Part shown: piece by piece, positions 2,094 through 51,300 of the stretch
Position numbering within the stretch: position 1 is the stretch's first letter
Layout: the number at the start of each line of letters is the position of its first letter
Origin: Raja brachyura
Taxonomy: Eukaryota
DNA: 64,000 bases
NCBI GenBank assembly: GCA_963514005.1
Contig: OY740790.1
Coordinates: 46,686,001-46,750,000 of the forward strand
Reading direction: 5' to 3'
Position numbers and translations under genes: made by a program
The notes under the pieces: generated by a model
Told to the model about the DNA's origin: nothing
Seen by the model: only the letters and a program-made list of their open reading frames with translations
The model's database searches: none

Positions 2094-2110
2094 GGGGGGA
2101 CAGTCAAAGA

Positions 2111-3289
2111 CACAGATCATAGAGCGGAGCAAGATACTCCACTTGCCGAAAAAGCCATAATACGTCAAGGGTAATTTTTCACGCCATCTTAATGGGCTCG
2201 TGATTACCGTCATGACGTCCACATCTACATCTCCAGCTCACTGACTGTATGATACGGACGTGCTGACTGAAAATCACACCCTTACGATCAATTATTTTAG
2301 GATAAGCCTTTCTAGAGAACATGCTACTTTTTGCTGCACCCATTTTCAAAAAATAGAATTTTAATTTGCCGTTTCATTGGTACAAGGAGACTGCAAAGCT
2401 CATAAAATCTATTTTCTACCACTGTAACTTTCTACATTTCTACTTTTGGCTATGTATGTAGCAATGATGGCTCATGGTATTTTCTCCCACATTATATTCA
2501 TAACAACATATATAAATAAGTGAAATTTTCAATCTTTCCAGCCCCTTAAAAAATGTCTGAAGAAGGGACCCGACCCTAAACATCACCTAGCCATTCCCAT
2601 AGATAGATGCTGCCTGTTCCGCTGAGTTACTCCAGCTTTTTGTGCCTATGTTCAATTTCAGAGTTAAATAAAAAAACAGAGTGCTAGAAGAACTCAGCGG
2701 GCTAGGCGGCATCTGTGGAGGGAATGGATTAGGAGTTGTTTCGGGCCAGGGTTCTTCTTCAATAGGAAGGAAATGCAGTTGTCTTTGCAAAACGCCAAAT
2801 GATTCCGGGAATGCCGAGGTGAGAGGGTGACAGGGTGAGAGAGTGAGCGAGAGATAGAGAGGGGGAGACAGGGAGATGGGGAGTGGGAGGGAGCACGCGG
2901 GAGAGAGGGGAGGGAGAGAGCGAGAGACAGAGAGAATCAGCGAGAGGAAGAGAGAGAGGGGGAGAGAGACAGGGAGAGAGCGAGAAAGAATGAGATATAG
3001 AGAGATTCCAGCCTCTTAACCCCAAACACCATTGTAGATCAAACTTACAAAGATAATCATCCAGATCTTGATATTTTAAATACTAACATATTCTTTCATT
3101 TTTTAAGCAGCAAGATCTTAAGTCAGTTTCACCAGGTTATTACTTTTCCATTGGCAAGTGGTATGTTAATGAAACAAGAAGTCAGGTTGAGCATTCCAAG
3201 ATGGCGGCCGTTACGCTCTGTTACGTACTACACCTCAGTGCATTGGATTATGCAGGAGTGGAGTATCTTGCTCCGCTCTATCATCTTTG
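2111..3289. mobile_element. Non-autonomous P-element-like DNA transposon (element A)
   Basis: 33-bp TIRs at 2111-2143 and 3257-3289 (2 mismatches) with CANAG termini; 8-bp flanks gtcaaaga/gtcagaga. Confidence 0.7.
2820..3004. repeat. GA-rich low-complexity tract
   Basis: Imperfect (GA)n polypurine run. Confidence 0.85.
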
Positions 3290-4335
3290 GTCAGAGAGCT
3301 CACTTTATTTCATGGAGCCGTCATCATGTTTATCAAAGATCCTATAGCGAGCAAGATAGTTCATTCAACGAAAAAGACGTAGTACGGTCATGGGCAGATT
3401 CATGGGTAATCTTCGGCCCCATTTCCGTAACCGGTTTTCGTCTCCGCCATCTTTGTCCGCCATAGCGGAGCAAAGATAATAGTGTGGAGACAGAAGCCGG
3501 ATACGGAAACATCCTCGTAAAAATCAAACATCTTTGGTAAAAATGTTTTCCTCATTTTCTTTCTGTCTCTCTGCCACAATTAAAGGCAAAATGATGCCTA
3601 TGTTCCTTCCACAACGAGTGGGAAGTATGGCACGGCTGGGACGCCAGGGTAAAGTTGCGGGGAGGTTTGCAGTGTAATTTTATGTAATGGTGTCCCTTGT
3701 CTGGGCCTTGAGTCCAAAGTAAAGTTTATCATCATATATAAAATCTGGAGAAATGTATATGTATGTTATATGATTATATACATCTATATCACATTCATAT
3801 ATGTGTGTATGTGTGTTCTTTCCTACACAATCTAATCAGTGTATGGTCGCTGAATAAACCATCCTTAAGTTATACATCGTATTTTAATCTAGCTCAAAAC
3901 AAATTTTATTTTGTTAAATACTTCATTTAGATAACCCCACCATTACAGACAGATCTCATTCCACTCTCTGGCTATTGGGAAGACCAGATCCATTTTATTG
4001 TTGAAAAACAATTCCATAGACAGGCCCATACGAAACTTTCCAAAAAGGTGGGTGGCATGACAAGATTACAGAAAATTTAACGTGACCAATATTTCAGAAA
4101 TTAACAGGAATCAGGTAGCTTTTTCACACAAAGGGTGCTGGGTGTATGGAACACGCTGCCAGAGGAGGTAGTTAAAGCTGGGACTAAAAAGTTAAGAAGA
4201 AAAATGCATGTAGATAAGTAGAGCAGATTTGAAAGAGGAGTGAAATGTAAAGGCAGAGAGAGGTTTATGGGTGGAAAGGAACATAGGAAAGGAGGGGGGA
4301 GAGTGGGCTTGGGAGATGGGTGAAGGGAAAATAGA

Positions 4336-4555
4336 CACAAAGTGTTGGAGTAACTCAGTGGGTCAGGCAGCATCTGCGGAGAATATGAATAGGCGACGTT
4401 TCACAGAGTACTGGAGTAACTCAGCGGGTCAGGCAGCATCTCTAGAGAACATGGATAGATGACATGTCACAGAGTGTTGGAGTAACTCAGTGAGTCAGGC
4501 AGCATCCCTGGGGAAAAGGTATACATTATATTTTGGGTCAAGACCGTTCTTCAGT
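4336..4555. repeat. Three tandem 66-bp units of the Penelope-like terminal repeat
   Basis: Units start at 4336, 4402 and 4468 (caca(a/g)agt..tggagtaactcag..ggtcaggcagcatc). Confidence 0.75.
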
Positions 4556-4714
4556 AATATTCATGATGTAACATGCATTTATGATTCCTGAATGTTACCC
4601 AAACCATCGTGAGCTAATTTGTTACGGTGCTTGCCCTCTCCTATAACTTGGGTGATGCAGGATAGGACACAAGCTTTGGGACACGGTGTGAAGCTGTTGC
4701 CGTCTGTCCCAGCC

Positions 4715-5960
4715 TGGTAAAGATCTGGGTGGAGTGGATGTTTCCACTAGTGGGAGAGTCTAGGACCAGTGGCCACAGCCTTGGAATTAAAAGACATTCC
4801 TTTAGGAAGGAGATGAGCAGGAATCTCTTAAGTCAGAGGGTGGTGAACTGTGGAATTCATTGCCACAGACAGCTGTGGAGGTCAAGTCAATGGAGGAGAA
4901 TTTTTCAGGAGGAGATTGATAGATTCTTGATTGATACGGGTGTCAAGAGGTAATGGGGAGAAGGCAGGAGATTGGGGTTTTGAGAGGGAAAGATAGATAG
5001 TCATAGAGTGATACAGGGTGGAAACAGGCCCTTCGGCACAGCATGTCCCATCTGCACTAGTCCCACCTGCCCACGTTTGATCCATATCCCTCCGAACCTG
5101 TCCTATCCATGTACCTGTCTAACTGTTTCTTAAATGTTGCGATAGTTCCCGCCTAAACTACCTCCTCTGGCAGCTTGTTACATACACCTACTACCCTTTG
5201 TGTGAAAAACATACCCCTCAGATTCCTATTAAATCTTTTGGCTTCACCTTAAACATATGTCCTCTGCTCCTCGATTCACCTACTCTGGGCAAAGGACTCA
5301 ACCATATCTATTCAAATCATGATTTTATACACCTCTATTAGATCATCCCTCATCCTCCTGTGCTCCATGAAATAGAGTCCCAGCCTACTCAACCTCTCCC
5401 TATAGCTCTGGCCCTCTAGTGCTGGCAACATCCTCATAAATCTTCACTGTATCCTTTCCAGTTTGATGACATCTTTCCTATAACATGGTGCCCACAACTG
5501 AATACAATACTCTTGAATGCGGCCTCACCACCTTCTTATGCAACTGCAACATGACATCCCAACCTCTATACTCAGCCTGACCCACTGAGTTACTCCAACA
5601 CTCTGTGAAACGTCTCAGAACAGGGCAAGATAAGCAAGTTTTCTGATGATACAGAAGTGAGTGGTTTTGCATGTAGTGAAGATGGTTGTGAAAGATTGCA
5701 GCAGCATCTGGATCAATTAGCCAGGTGGGCAGAGGAATGGTTGATGGTTGCATGGTTCTTTGAAGGTCGTGTCGCAGGTGTATCAGGTGGTCAAAACGTA
5801 TTTTGGCACTTTGGCCTTCATCAGTCAAAGTATTGAGTGTAGAAGTTGGGAGATCACGTTGCAGTTGTATAAGACGTTGGTGAGACCGCATTTAGAAAAT
5901 TGTGTTCAGTTCTGGGCACCATGTTATAGGAAAGATGTCAAACTGAAAAGAGTACAGAGA
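4715..5960. mobile_element. CR1/HER1 LINE 3' fragments in both orientations
   Basis: MFPLVGESRTSGHSL; LYKTLVRPHLENCVQFWAP motifs. Confidence 0.75.
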
Positions 5961-6555
5961 TCCCCATCCTGGATCAGTCCAATCAAGGTTGTGTCGTCCG
6001 CAAACTTGAGAAGCTTGACAAAGGTGTCTGTGGAGGTGCAGTCATTGGTGTGGCGAGAGTAGGGGAAAGGGGAGAGTATGCATCTTGCGGTGCTCCTATG
6101 CTGAGCATATGCAGGTCCGAGATATGCTTTCCCGTCTCACATGCTGCTTCCTGTCTGTCAGAAAGGCGGTGATCCACCGACAGAGGGGTTCAGGCACAGT
6201 CAACTCAGAAAGTTTGGAGTGTAATAGCTCTGGCACAATGGTGTTGAATGCAGAGCTAAAATCAACAAACAAAATCCCCGCATAGGTCCCCTGGCGGTCT
6301 AGGTGCTGGAGGATGAAGTGTAGGCCCAGATTGACTGTGTCATCCACAGATCTATTGGCCCAATATGCAAAATGCAGGGGTCCAGCAGAGGGATTGTGAT
6401 ATTTTTCAGCTTGGCCAGCACAAGCCTTTCAACGGTCTTCATGACTACAGAGGTCAGTGCGACAGGCCTGTAGTCATTAAGACCAGTAATCCTTGCCTTT
6501 TTGGGTACAGGGACGATAGTGGAGACTTTGAAGCAGGCAAGGACAGTACATCTTT
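5960..6555 (-). mobile_element. Rex1/Babar LINE reverse transcriptase fragment
   Basis: [25 protein letters not shown]...CRWITAFLTDRKQHV. Confidence 0.8.
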
Positions 6556-6559
6556 GCAG

Positions 6560-6720
6560 GGAGTGGCGGGGGTGGGGGTGGTGTGGGCCCAGCGGGGATC
6601 AGCGGGGGTGGCGTGGGCCCAGCGGGGGTGGCGTGGGCCCAGCGTAGGTGGAGTGGGCCAGCGGGGGTGGCGTGGGCCCAGCGGGGGTGGCGTGGGACCG
6701 GTGGGGGGAGGGGCGTGGGG
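6560..6720. repeat. GC-rich minisatellite, unit about 20 bp (ggcgtgggcccagcgggggt)
   Basis: About 5-6 imperfect tandem copies with dense G-runs. Confidence 0.8.
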
Positions 6721-7772
6721 GGAAGATGGCTTGGGCTCCAGCGGCAGGGGGAGCGGGCCCTGCCGCAGCGGCGTCTGGTGTTGGAGTTACAGCTGCTGGG
6801 TTCAGATTCAGCCACTCCCGCCCGGCGACAGGAGAACGGTCTCCTGGTCGCCAGGCTGGCCGTTGGTGAGGCTCTGACGCCGCTGATGGAGACGCTGGAC
6901 CGGGCGGGCAGACACCGCACCCCGGACCCTCCCCCCCCTGGCCTGGAGAAATGGGCATTCCCTTATCCTGCGGGCCAGATTAGACCCCCTCATGGGTAGT
7001 TTGAACCAAGGATAAAAAGGACTCCCCCTCCTGAAACGCAATATTCCACTACTTACCTGAAGTAGACAACATGAGGCATCGAGCTCAATGTGTGGAGTGC
7101 AAATGGCAGTCTGATCCCACCTGGGCTCACTGCGCACAGGCAGAGAGGCGGTCTCATCTTGTGTCGCTTCCCCAACTGCGCAGGCGCGGATGGTTGCAGT
7201 TTTATTCTCCCAAATCATCCAGTGGCCGGAACCAGAATTTTGGGTGTTTTTCCAACAAATTGGAAACGCTGATTTTTTTCTCCGACTTTTTTTCCTCGGG
7301 ATTTTTTCTTACTTTCGGGCGCTTTTCCGACAAATTGGAAACGCGGATTTCTTTTTTGATTTTTTTATTTTCAAAGTTTTTCCTCTGGATTTTTTCTGAA
7401 AAAGGGAAAAGGGGGGTGCCGTCGCACCCAACGCACCCCCCCTTCGGACGGCCATGATAGACACAAAAAATCATTGAGGAACATTAAGGAACATTCCAAG
7501 AGTAGAGCAACTGGAATCTTCATATTGCTATTATTTTTCCAAATACCACAGTTCTGATTAGATGAATTACAGAGTGCAAGATATAAAAATCAACTCAAAC
7601 AGCACATGAGCCATTTAAAAAGAAAAGTTTAAAAAAAAACATTAAAAAGACAATTAACAGAATCATAATTTGTTAACATATTAATCTTTAACAAGATTTA
7701 ACAGCATTATGAATGAACAGAATTATGAATCTAACCCTCTATCACACACGCAAACTGTTCCCCCGCAACGCT

Positions 7773-7818
7773 GATTACACCAAAGATCCTGCTCCGCTAT
7801 ACGCTCTTTGGATTACAC
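7773..7818. mobile_element. P-like footprint: 30-bp fused TIR remnant between perfect 8-bp direct repeats
   Basis: gattacac-CAAAGATCCTGCTCCGCTATACGCTCTTTG-gattacac. Confidence 0.7.
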
Positions 7819-7934
7819 TGCGAGAGGGATTTACAAATCGGGTCGGGTTACTGAAATGTCCGCTCCGTTGCTACTACACGTCAGCCCATTGCATTTAGCA
7901 GGAGAGGACTATCTTGCTCGCTATAGGATATTTG

Positions 7935-8120
7935 GTGTTTATCAGCCGCAGCGCCCCCTGCTGTGCCGGGGGACTCAGCAATCGCTCGGCCTGCAGAGAA
8001 GGTGAGTTGATGGTTGGCAGGCAACGAGACTGATCGTTCACGGCACTGCCGACGTCCGTGGAAGAAGAAGAAACAGCAGCGGCAGCAGCGGCAGCAGCGG
8101 GCCCGGGGGTGACGGGCATC
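7935..8120 (+). promoter_or_regulatory. IPP: CpG-rich IPP promoter/5' UTR
   Basis: CpG-dense segment directly upstream of the ATG; (GCA/GCG) repeat at 8074-8100. Confidence 0.6.
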
Positions 8121-8442
8121 ATGGCTCACTGCGTGTACCCGAGGCCGGGGCCGGGGTCGGGGTCGATCCCGGTGTTGGAGCAGGTTGGCTGGGCTAGCGA
8201 CAGACACGCACGGATCCTGCTGGCCCAGATCAACCGCATGAGGGCCCGCGACGACTTCTGCGACGTGCGGCTGCAGGTGGAGCAGCAGGTCTTCAGCGTC
8301 CACAGGCTGGTGCTGGCCGCCAGCAGCCCCTACTTCGCCGTGCTCTTCGCAGGGGGCTTGCAGGAAACCGGCCAGAGCCTCGTCCACATCCACGGCATCG
8401 AGGCAGAAATCTTCACGCTGCTGCTTGACTTTATTTACACCG
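8121..8442 (+). CDS. IPP: Actin-binding protein IPP (KLHL27), coding exon 1, BTB domain
   Basis: ggcatcATGG; SDRHARILLAQINRMR...FCDVRLQV...HRLVLAASSPYF...LLDFIYTG; donor gtgaga at 8443. Confidence 0.93.
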
Positions 8443-8475
8443 GTGAGAGGATGGATCAATGTTCTCCTGTCGCGT

Positions 8476-8678
8476 AAGATAGACACAAAATGCTGGAGTA
8501 ACGCAGCGGGACAGGCAGGCAGCGTCCCTGAAGAGAAGGAATTGGTGATGTTTCGGGTCGAGACCCTTCTTCGGACTGCCTGAGGAAGGGTGTCGACCCA
8601 AAACATCACCCATCTTTTCTCGCCAGAGATGCTGCCTGCCTGTCCCGCTGAGTTACTCCAGCATTTTGTGTCTATCTT
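8476..8678. repeat. Palindromic pair of Penelope-like ends (arms about 100 bp)
   Basis: aagatagacacaaaatgctggagtaac... versus ...gttactccagcattttgtgtctatctt; a degenerate hammerhead core on each strand. Confidence 0.8.
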
Positions 8679-9230
8679 CCGTGTAAGCCAGCATCTGCAG
8701 TTTCTTCCTACATGTTTATTTTGTCGCTTCACAGACCCAGTTGCAAACCATCGAGAATAAAGTCATTGCGTTGGGGGAGAAAACATTGGATCACAGATCA
8801 AAGGGAGAATTCCGCTTTAAAGCTTAAAACCATTCTCTTTGATCAAACTATTGGTCACTCTCGTGTGGCTTCACTTCTCTTTTTATTTGGTTAATGTGTG
8901 TGAAGGCCCCCGTCACTTTATTCTGCACTTAAAGGCAAAATAAATGCAGTGTTGTGACCGCATGCCCTTCGACATCATTACACACAGTGAGGTACCCACC
9001 TAATAAAGTCACAACATGGGACTATTTGAATGTTAAACATTAGCCAACATGATCAAAATAAAGATGTCTGTGTTGTATACTATTGAATAATGCAACCAGG
9101 TGACTGAAAGACTGAAGGGAATTATCATGGATTGCAGTATATAAATTGAAAAGATATGTATGAATTAGTTAAAAGATTCTTCAGCTTTAAGAGTGAGTGT
9201 CATTCCAATCAACTTTAGTAAGCAAACTGG

Positions 9231-50599: not shown

Positions 50600-51300
50600 G
50601 GGGGCGTGCTGGCGATTGCACTCAAAGATAATCGCACTACTCTTGCACTGGAGGCCACCTCCCTTCCTTCAGAGTTCCAATCGCTTGTGACGCCGGAGAG
50701 CCTGACGGAGCACGTGACCCTGCTGCGAACGCTTCCTTCCGCCCCCCCCCCCCCGTGTACGCGTGCACGAGGAGCGTCTCAGGACGACCGAGAGCAGGCA
50801 CGAGCACGCGGAGCGTCTGAGGGGAGAACGAGCGAAGGCACGAGCACGCGGAGCGTCTGAGGGGAGAACGAGCGGAGGCACGGGCACGCGGAGCGTTTGA
50901 GGGGAGAACGAGCGCGGGCACGAGCACGCGGAGTGTCGAGTGCGAGCAACGAAGGGGGGCGGGGGAGAGAGAGAGAGAAAAAACTGCGGCGCAGAGCTGT
51001 GGGCAGTAGGAGAGAGAGAGAGAGTGTGTGCACAGCAGTAGAGTCGATGATTATAAACAAAACAAAACACCTCGGAAATACCTTGGTTAGGGAGACAGAG
51101 AAAAGAAAAAGCTCCAGGCCCTGAAGTAAGGGACCGACGCTGACCCATTGCCTCCTTCCCCGTGTAGGTAGGCAGCCAATGTTATTACCCTGCAGCTGCT
51201 TTGTCGCCATTTTGGCTCAGTGTTTGTTGTTATTATCATCGTGGGCTTCACCAGCCGCCTTACGCCGTCCTCTGCCTTTTATTGTCGTTGCATTTTATAA
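50600..51300. promoter_or_regulatory. CpG island promoter, probably bidirectional (TMEM69 on -, next gene on +, likely GPBP1L1)
   Basis: High CpG density; E-box CACGTGAC at 50711; YY1 motif GTCGCCATTTTG at 51203-51214; human gene order IPP-TMEM69-GPBP1L1. Confidence 0.65.
50797..50933. repeat. 40-bp tandem repeat, about 3.4 copies
   Basis: cg(a/g)gcacgcg at 50801, 50841, 50881 and 50921. Confidence 0.9.

Follow-up and report, generated by a model that had tools for sequence, protein, structure and literature searches.

A P-superfamily transposon family in the skate Raja brachyura: two non-autonomous elements upstream of IPP, excision scars and a probable domesticated transposase

In this work we describe a family of P-like transposons in the skate Raja brachyura, centred on two elements, here called E1 and E2, that lie upstream of the IPP gene in a 64,000-nucleotide stretch of contig OY740790.1 (assembly GCA_963514005.1, positions 46,686,001 to 46,750,000; hereafter the window). 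The closest well-described system is the P element of Drosophila melanogaster, whose transposase (DmTNP, PDB 6P5A) combines a THAP domain with an RNase H/DDE core carrying a GTP-binding insertion, and whose spliced gene lies between unlike ends with terminal inverted repeats (TIRs) of ~30 bp, target-site duplications (TSDs) of 8 bp and a GT....AC target core, given as GTCCGGAC in PMC2577343. A 17-nt staggered cut has been described as a distinguishing P feature (PMC7776569); it leaves 17-nt 3' tails on the donor, and once joined these yield two TSDs enclosing two tail remnants of at most 17 nt each, with filler or microhomology between the remnants (PMC2895639). The skate family resembles Drosophila P in its protein domains, spliced gene, end structure, TSD length and target core, and its donor scars likewise consist of TIR stubs flanked by TSDs. 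Unlike Drosophila P, its TIR sequence is unrelated beyond the initial CA, its stubs end at 20 nt rather than 17, no promoter enrichment is detected by a CpG proxy, and it consists of thousands of fixed old copies in a vertebrate host.

The vertebrate cases described are zebrafish Pdre and the domesticated THAP9. Pdre/zfTHAP9 likewise is a vertebrate P-like element with an 8-bp TSD and internally deleted copies, and its transposase is described as excising but not integrating; by its description, Pdre2 differs from the skate family in TIRs that are 13 bp long and unlike in sequence and in 12-bp subterminal repeats lying at a distance, and the homologous sequences counted for Pdre number at least 50, against several thousand ends with 26-33-bp TIRs in the skate (PMC10983969). 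THAP9, a domesticated P transposase, has a parallel in a TIR-less, open P-transposase gene of the skate, here called P0001, which unlike THAP9 is ~80% identical to relics of its own family and has lost its THAP domain; among the classes that a THAP9-CTD survey lists (section 17 of preprint 10.64898/2026.08.31.747927), none is of cartilaginous fishes. A precedent for classifying non-coding copies is the BuT5 miniature inverted-repeat transposable element (MITE) of the Drosophila repleta group, which was assigned to P via ends shared with a transposase-bearing element; BuT5 differs from the skate family in its 8- and 9-bp TSDs, insect host and different ends, and the available part of that paper does not use the term CANRG (PMC3698922). 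A preliminary description of the window had called vertebrate relatives of P few, which is too strong, as unnamed teleost P-like proteins exist in NCBI and form a separate clade in a quick tree. Our literature search turned up no description of an elasmobranch P element; this search did not extend to Repbase or Dfam, either of which may have catalogued the family, and the skate genome paper passages covered mention LINEs (long interspersed nuclear elements) only, though DNA/P families may be listed in its supplements. Overall, the best explanation of our data, and one we hold with high confidence, is that a large P family, apparently extinct, once spread in skates, and that E1 and E2 are two of its non-autonomous copies, shortened by internal deletion.

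Two elements and the transposase of their family

The elements and associated features upstream of IPP are as follows (no strand is given where none applies).

2103..2110: left TSD of E1, 7/8 identical to 3290-3297
2111..3289, + strand: E1, non-autonomous P-family element of 1,179 bp with TIRs at 2111-2143 and 3257-3289
2212..2244, + strand: remnant in E1 of transposase THAP exon 1, aligned to the THAP start of relics L043/44 and L059/60
3290..3333: host spacer of 44 bp, including the right TSD of E1 (3290-3297) and the left TSD of E2 (3326-3333)
3334..7934, + strand: E2, non-autonomous P family member of ~1.15 kb with TIRs at 3334-3360 and 7908-7934 and native parts at 3334-4021 and 7463-7934
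4022..7456: nested insert or inserts of common repeats in E2, outside the P family and bordered by a 5-6-bp duplication
7773..7818: P-type excision footprint in E2, comprising an 8-bp TSD, 10 nt of one TIR and 20 nt of the other (together 7781-7810) and an 8-bp TSD
7935..7942: right TSD of E2, 7/8 identical to 3326-3333

The preliminary description had proposed two neighbouring TIR elements 44 bp apart with 8-bp flanking repeats, and both TIRs and flanks bear this out. The TIRs of E1 measure 33 bp with 94% complementarity and those of E2 27 bp with 26/27 positions matched; the flanks GTCAAAGA/GTCAGAGA of E1 and ATGTTTAT/GTGTTTAT of E2 each match at seven of eight positions, and among lengths of 4-12 bp only 8 bp stands out. 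The proposed CANAG start holds for three of the four ends (CACAG, CAAAG, CAAAG), the fourth, CAAAT, being a decayed end, and the proposed subterminal relatedness is confined to 61-76 bp at the ends, at 76-79% identity. As had been stated, the window contains no transposase (tblastn with the family transposase P0001 gave no match at E 1e-3); E1 keeps a THAP remnant of a start codon and 10 codons followed by a stop. That description overlooked a third event inside E2, as well as the nested nature of 3.4 kb of it: the segment at 4022-7456 is missing from 12/12 other E2-family copies examined and is therefore a later insert, pieces of which match many unrelated loci. It has weakly inverted ends and contains SINE/LINE-like pieces (SINE, short interspersed nuclear element) and GC-rich 20-bp tandem repeats (6600-6707).

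Both elements have their own relatives. Those of E1 are dispersed in the genome, with 84-89% identity along its first ~500 bp in the 10 best of them, and E2 has 39 other genome matches spanning most of its left 689 bp at 81-90%. Seven of 12 examined copies of the E2 family measure 1,111-1,173 bp, which gives its size of ~1.15 kb. At non-CpG sites E2 differs from the majority of its family by 3-5%, which indicates an old family; a divergence of 3.1% for E2 lies close to the 3.3-5.4% of other copies (one 10.7%). The ends of E1 match those of transposase-bearing relics, and the interior of E2 is 72-77% identical to and collinear with such a relic on C10. Within the subterminal regions, positions 3197-3208 and 7872-7892 contain words which we take to be YY1-like, CRE-half-site-like (CRE, cAMP response element) and CCAAT-like, and the word GTAGTACG, which recurs at most family ends, is a candidate THAP binding site. 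An empty orthologous site was not obtained from four sequencing runs, which gave joints dominated by repeats; one contig of run X15, which may be from the same species, spans the left junction of E1.

Genome-wide, the E1 TIR pattern, with no more than 2 mismatches allowed, was found 3,059 times against 1 in the control, which excludes chance as its source; the E2-type pattern gave 1,030 exact matches and a looser pattern 4,746 against 20, so that the TIR search suggested by the preliminary description yields thousands of end matches. Among the 100 genome TIR matches listed, most start with CAAAGAT. Sixty loci of 3 kb contain 29 facing TIR pairs; in 24 of these the 8-bp flanks agree at six or more positions, in 13 of them at all eight, fitting the TSD of 7-8 bp anticipated. 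At 60 target half-sites, T occupies position -7 in 44 and A position -2 in 43, a GTnnnnAC-like, weakly palindromic target that resembles the core of the Drosophila ATRGTCCGGACWAT (PMC2577343). These data support the earlier view of a formerly mobile family, with non-autonomous members, in an elasmobranch. The TIRs at L004, L015 and L029 have a common outer flank and atypical inner sequence, and thus probably lie inside another repeat.

The transposase partner anticipated by the preliminary description was found between the same TIRs, and it is of P type, not hAT. A PF21788 profile search recovered 10 loci, and at six of them E1/E2-type ends lie in the orientation expected from the gene. In four relics a family end stands on each side and the flanks form a matching TSD: on C10 (6.8 kb), C13 and C14 at 8/8, and on C34 at 7/8. 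THAP (PF05485) matches above cut-off were found at relics on C12, C3, C14, C34 and C48, some inside and some beside them, and THAP exon 1 begins ~100-140 bp inside the left end of relics. The longest open family protein, P0001, carries three TNP-like Pfam domains (PF21787, PF21788 and PF21789), and its sole PDB match is the Drosophila P transposase (6P5A, E 1.4e-29). Residues of P0001 align with D230/D303/E531 of DmTNP, giving the D, D, E and D(2)H signature; D149, D239, E468, D272-x2-H275 and D383 are invariant across 12 aligned proteins; and the GTP-binding insertion domain is present with equivalents of D444/K400. A transposase tblastn of the genome gave at least 74 matches, and every copy examined other than P0001 is either incomplete or broken by stops or frameshifts. 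The four TSD-bounded relics and the match of P0001 to Drosophila P settle the choice of P over hAT, although no search aimed at hAT was made, and judged by its sequence the E1/E2 family is a member of the P superfamily, as had been proposed.

Two transposase copies, L045+L046 (position 9884) and the one on C26 (L151), are less decayed than others, with dN 0.03 and dS 0.2 against the majority; downstream of the gene both have one more left end, its flank identical in the two, and they form a composite subfamily. Many dispersed THAP matches away from P transposase, covering model positions 1-60 in frames of ~100 aa, probably belong to another THAP-carrying repeat family.

Excision scars and a proposed cleavage offset

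The third event in E2 is a 30-bp insert at 7781-7810 in its right end, in which two TIR stubs face each other between TSDs matching at 8/8, and which is missing in 8/8 aligned E2-family copies. The same build recurs across the genome. The genome was scanned for a 15-base TIR stretch and, no more than 30 nt beyond it, a 7-base end in the facing orientation. This pattern, able to catch stubs of up to 59 bp, gave 2,301 strand matches for TSD-type head-to-head stubs and 0 in controls. Stubs keeping at least 20 TIR bases gave 262 matches and those keeping at least 22 just 4, one of which is a 58-bp internal deletion (L204) and two of which lack a TSD. A sample of 44 sites, comprising the first 24 of the 15-base scan and 20 of the 20-base scan (every second one listed, C1-C4), showed an 8-bp TSD at 6/8 or better in 39. 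Stubs are often joined as 15+15 or 20+20 with two nucleotides, GC, overlapping. Some joins have fillers, and two 40-mers, each of another TIR subfamily, are split exactly 20+20 with no microhomology. The retained-length histogram of the sample is biased, as 20 of its sites were chosen for at least 20 nt, and its value of 25 is in our reading a scoring artefact of locus L191 (strict count 21); the real test is the genome-wide contrast of 262 with 4. From this structure we infer that the family transposase cut with a stagger of about 20 nt (20 plus or minus 1), compared with 17 in Drosophila.

Scars are also carried by other repeats. The footprints L180, L182, L183, L185, L189, L195 and L200, and likewise L193, L196, L208, L218, L220 and L226, lie inside CpG-rich repeats copied genome-wide; since single footprints were copied along with these repeats, the repeats were amplified after P activity. 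At L058:5531-5734, a 45-bp footprint with its 8-bp TSD forms four tandem units of 53 bp, a scar turned minisatellite.

Several observations weigh against the reading of E1, E2 and the scars as products of one P family. Footprint counts are inflated, symmetric scars being counted on both strands; 47 sites reduce to 31 flank clusters, from which it follows that about a third of scars are passive copies inside other repeats; and a few joins read as 21 nt, which is why the offset is given with a margin of 1 nt. Five of the 29 TIR pairs lack a TSD (three 180-bp pairs, one pair shifted by a single base and one whose end is broken). At four of the 10 PF21788 loci, 8 kb of flanking sequence contain no end in the correct orientation (three have none and one has a left-type end downstream), two C12 relics are enclosed on both sides with no TSD match, and an intact full-length element was not found among the examined transposase-bearing copies. 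The 180-bp pairs (L011, L013 and L021) possibly represent internal inverted arms of a larger element.

Two other explanations bear on these data. The TIRs of the P superfamily start with CANRG, and the preliminary description had taken this start together with 7-8-bp TSDs as the mark of P; both features are present, but they are not diagnostic alone, as hobo/Hermes-type hATs share a CANAG-like start and an 8-bp TSD, and the target motif also fits hATs. The elements could on this basis be hAT-family MITEs with P fragments as mere passengers, a reading we consider hardly credible: the relics are collinear with THAP exon 1 just inside the left end, hAT excision leaves a donor free of TIR stubs where more than 1,000 stub sites are found here, and the four TSD-bounded P relics largely refute it, although no search aimed at a hAT transposase was made. 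The 24-40-bp stubs, in turn, could be tiny mobile MITEs or ordinary internal deletions, with the 20-nt limit reflecting a choice of microhomology. The same 28- and 38-bp junctions do recur at unrelated sites with different TSDs, and such joins are favoured by the GC that the TIR has at positions 14-15 and again at 19-20, but we think this improbable given that junctions are diverse and include fillers, that exact 20+20 joins free of microhomology occur in two subfamilies, that a pattern reaching 59 bp gave just 4 stubs with 22 nt or more, that the stubs lack the subterminal sequence retained in longer copies, and that their build equals that of Drosophila donor junctions. Excision by a P-type transposase remains our preferred account of the scars.

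Insertion near promoters and the IPP gene

The gene downstream of E2 is IPP.

7969..8442, + strand: first coding exon and 5' untranslated region of IPP, with ATG at 8121 and GT donor at 8443, CpG-rich

Its coding part (8121-8442) is 95% identical to IPP of Leucoraja erinacea and 94% to that of Rhinoraja longicauda, and the 500 bp after E2 contain 43 CpGs. Contigs of runs X1 and X3, whose RNA nature is a guess, span 7969/7984 to 8445, as far as the splice donor, and the right end of E2 lies ~35-50 bp upstream of the 5'-most of them, a weak hint that IPP transcription starts just downstream of E2. A contig of X15, a large and probably genomic run, spans 7908-8501 and continues on both sides. No RNA data on record were found for the IPP stretch.

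The preliminary description had proposed that the family prefers promoters. As a CpG proxy, the outer flanks of 60 ends (C1-C3) were compared with 120 random 1.5-kb windows (C1-C2). Maximum CpG per 300 bp was 13.4 in flanks and 13.9 in random windows (p 0.68), CpG-island-like sequence occurred in 13/60 and 29/120, and at least 30 CpGs in the nearest 500 bp, where IPP has 43, in 0/60 end flanks against 18/360 controls. The 24 unclustered footprints gave 4/48 flanks at this level against 18/360 (p 0.55 on counts). CpG-rich flanks are therefore no commoner than random, and a general promoter preference is not supported; with a 95% upper bound of 4.9% and an assumed promoter share of 0.5%, a majority at promoters is excluded among surviving copies, and an enrichment of ~10-fold is still allowed. 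The power of this proxy is low, since CpG-rich control windows are probably repeats and ends and controls come from differing contig sets. In the 1.5 kb outside each of the 60 ends no further TIR was present, which makes the IPP pair unusual, and three events within 200 bp at IPP have a chance of ~1e-4 genome-wide (a rough estimate from ~3,400 events in 2.7 Gb). Footprints and whole elements were also found inside other family members, near their ends, and attraction to existing ends may explain the third IPP event. The local hopping suggested for E1 beside E2, in either direction, was rejected: they belong to two separately amplified MITE families, each with dispersed relatives. The IPP cluster is a local hot spot, and family-wide promoter preference remains unproven.

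It might still be argued that the family targets promoters genome-wide in the manner of Drosophila P, with IPP as one example and most other promoter insertions purged by selection. Three independent events at one CpG-rich 5' end are unlikely by chance, and Drosophila P is described as favouring promoters (PMC7776569), but the 60 end flanks are no richer in CpG than random windows and the footprints, expected to be less purged, also show no enrichment, which leaves this a doubtful though not far-fetched proposal. Somewhat less probable still is that the right end of E2 was exapted as the proximal promoter of IPP. Its position 35-50 bp before the 5'-most RNA-like contigs would fit, its right end retains 9/9 consensus CpGs compared with 69/93 in eight other copies (suggestive only), and mouse Ipp has an alternative promoter derived from a transposable element, a long terminal repeat, which is a parallel and not evidence (PMC3501640). 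Set against this, retention of 9/9 CpGs at a base rate of 74% gives p about 0.07, the non-CpG divergence of E2 is near that of other copies, and contigs of runs merely guessed to be RNA cannot reveal a start site. A local hot spot upstream of IPP thus remains our preferred description of the locus.

Elsewhere in the window, a very common short repeat forms a 100-bp inverted pair at 8473-8681 in IPP intron 1, and a CpG-rich 40-bp tandem repeat of 4.3 copies occupies 50765-50937.

P0001, proposed history and significance

The one open transposase copy among those examined lies outside the window.

G000:C3:19710281-19712380 (L035, L049-L050): P0001, P-transposase gene, open, TIR-less and THAP-less

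P0001 has 672 open codons from Met29 and retains only the tail of THAP exon 2; no family ends were found in 32 kb around it, and a CpG island lies ~3.5 kb upstream. Its DNA is ~80% identical to family relics and nests among them in a quick tree, which points to an origin from the E1/E2 family. It has an intact relative in an unnamed cluster of 32 proteins, 81-82% identical (the 15 listed are all of 677 aa), which has in common with P0001 the same start Met, the same early stop and a private insertion, and groups with it at a support of 100 in a quick tree of 25 rows. No named vertebrate THAP9 was among the best 120 protein matches of P0001. In 586 scored codons P0001 has 0 stops, against mostly 2-5 stops plus frameshifts in paralogues of similar divergence; the dN/dS of its branch against the majority of paralogues is 0.8, so that purifying selection at the residue level is not shown. 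The frame has been kept and the residues are relaxed. These features suggest that P0001 is likely a domesticated gene, and the domestication was probably independent of that of THAP9. The frame upstream of P0001 switches at a 12-A run, which is either real or an assembly error.

The relics show that the autonomous element had TIRs of ~26-33 bp with CAAAGAT at their start and subterminal regions that differed between left and right; its gene was spliced and made up of THAP exon 1, THAP exon 2 and a long exon encoding the RNase H/DDE core with the GTP-binding insertion. Insertion into a weakly palindromic, GTnnnnAC-like target generated the 8-bp TSDs. From the structure of the scars, excision by a staggered cut would have left the donor chromosome with tails consisting of ~20 nt from each TIR, and end joining of these tails, often through 2-nt GC microhomology, would have produced scars of the form TSD-stub-stub-TSD. 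The region upstream of IPP appears to have been struck three times independently: E1 and E2 would have entered at target sites 36 bp apart, a third element would have entered the right subterminal region of E2 and later been excised, and E2 would then have acquired its 3.4-kb nested insert.

The P-superfamily family is real, and the results of interest are two: an offset of 20 nt as read from the footprints, and a domestication that was probably independent. That the two hold jointly, in a P family separate from Pdre/THAP9, we regard as about an even prospect. The skate family would represent full cut-and-paste P activity, with thousands of copies, in a cartilaginous fish. Scars of this kind provide a means of reading the cleavage offset of any P family from sequence only, which makes the universality of the 17-nt offset testable across genomes. 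Scars also outnumber the elements as a record of where insertions took place, one from which selection has probably removed less, and this suits them to tests of promoter preference given annotation. If our reading is true, the many scars in this genome preserve a trace of the chemistry by which a vertebrate P transposase, now extinct, once worked.

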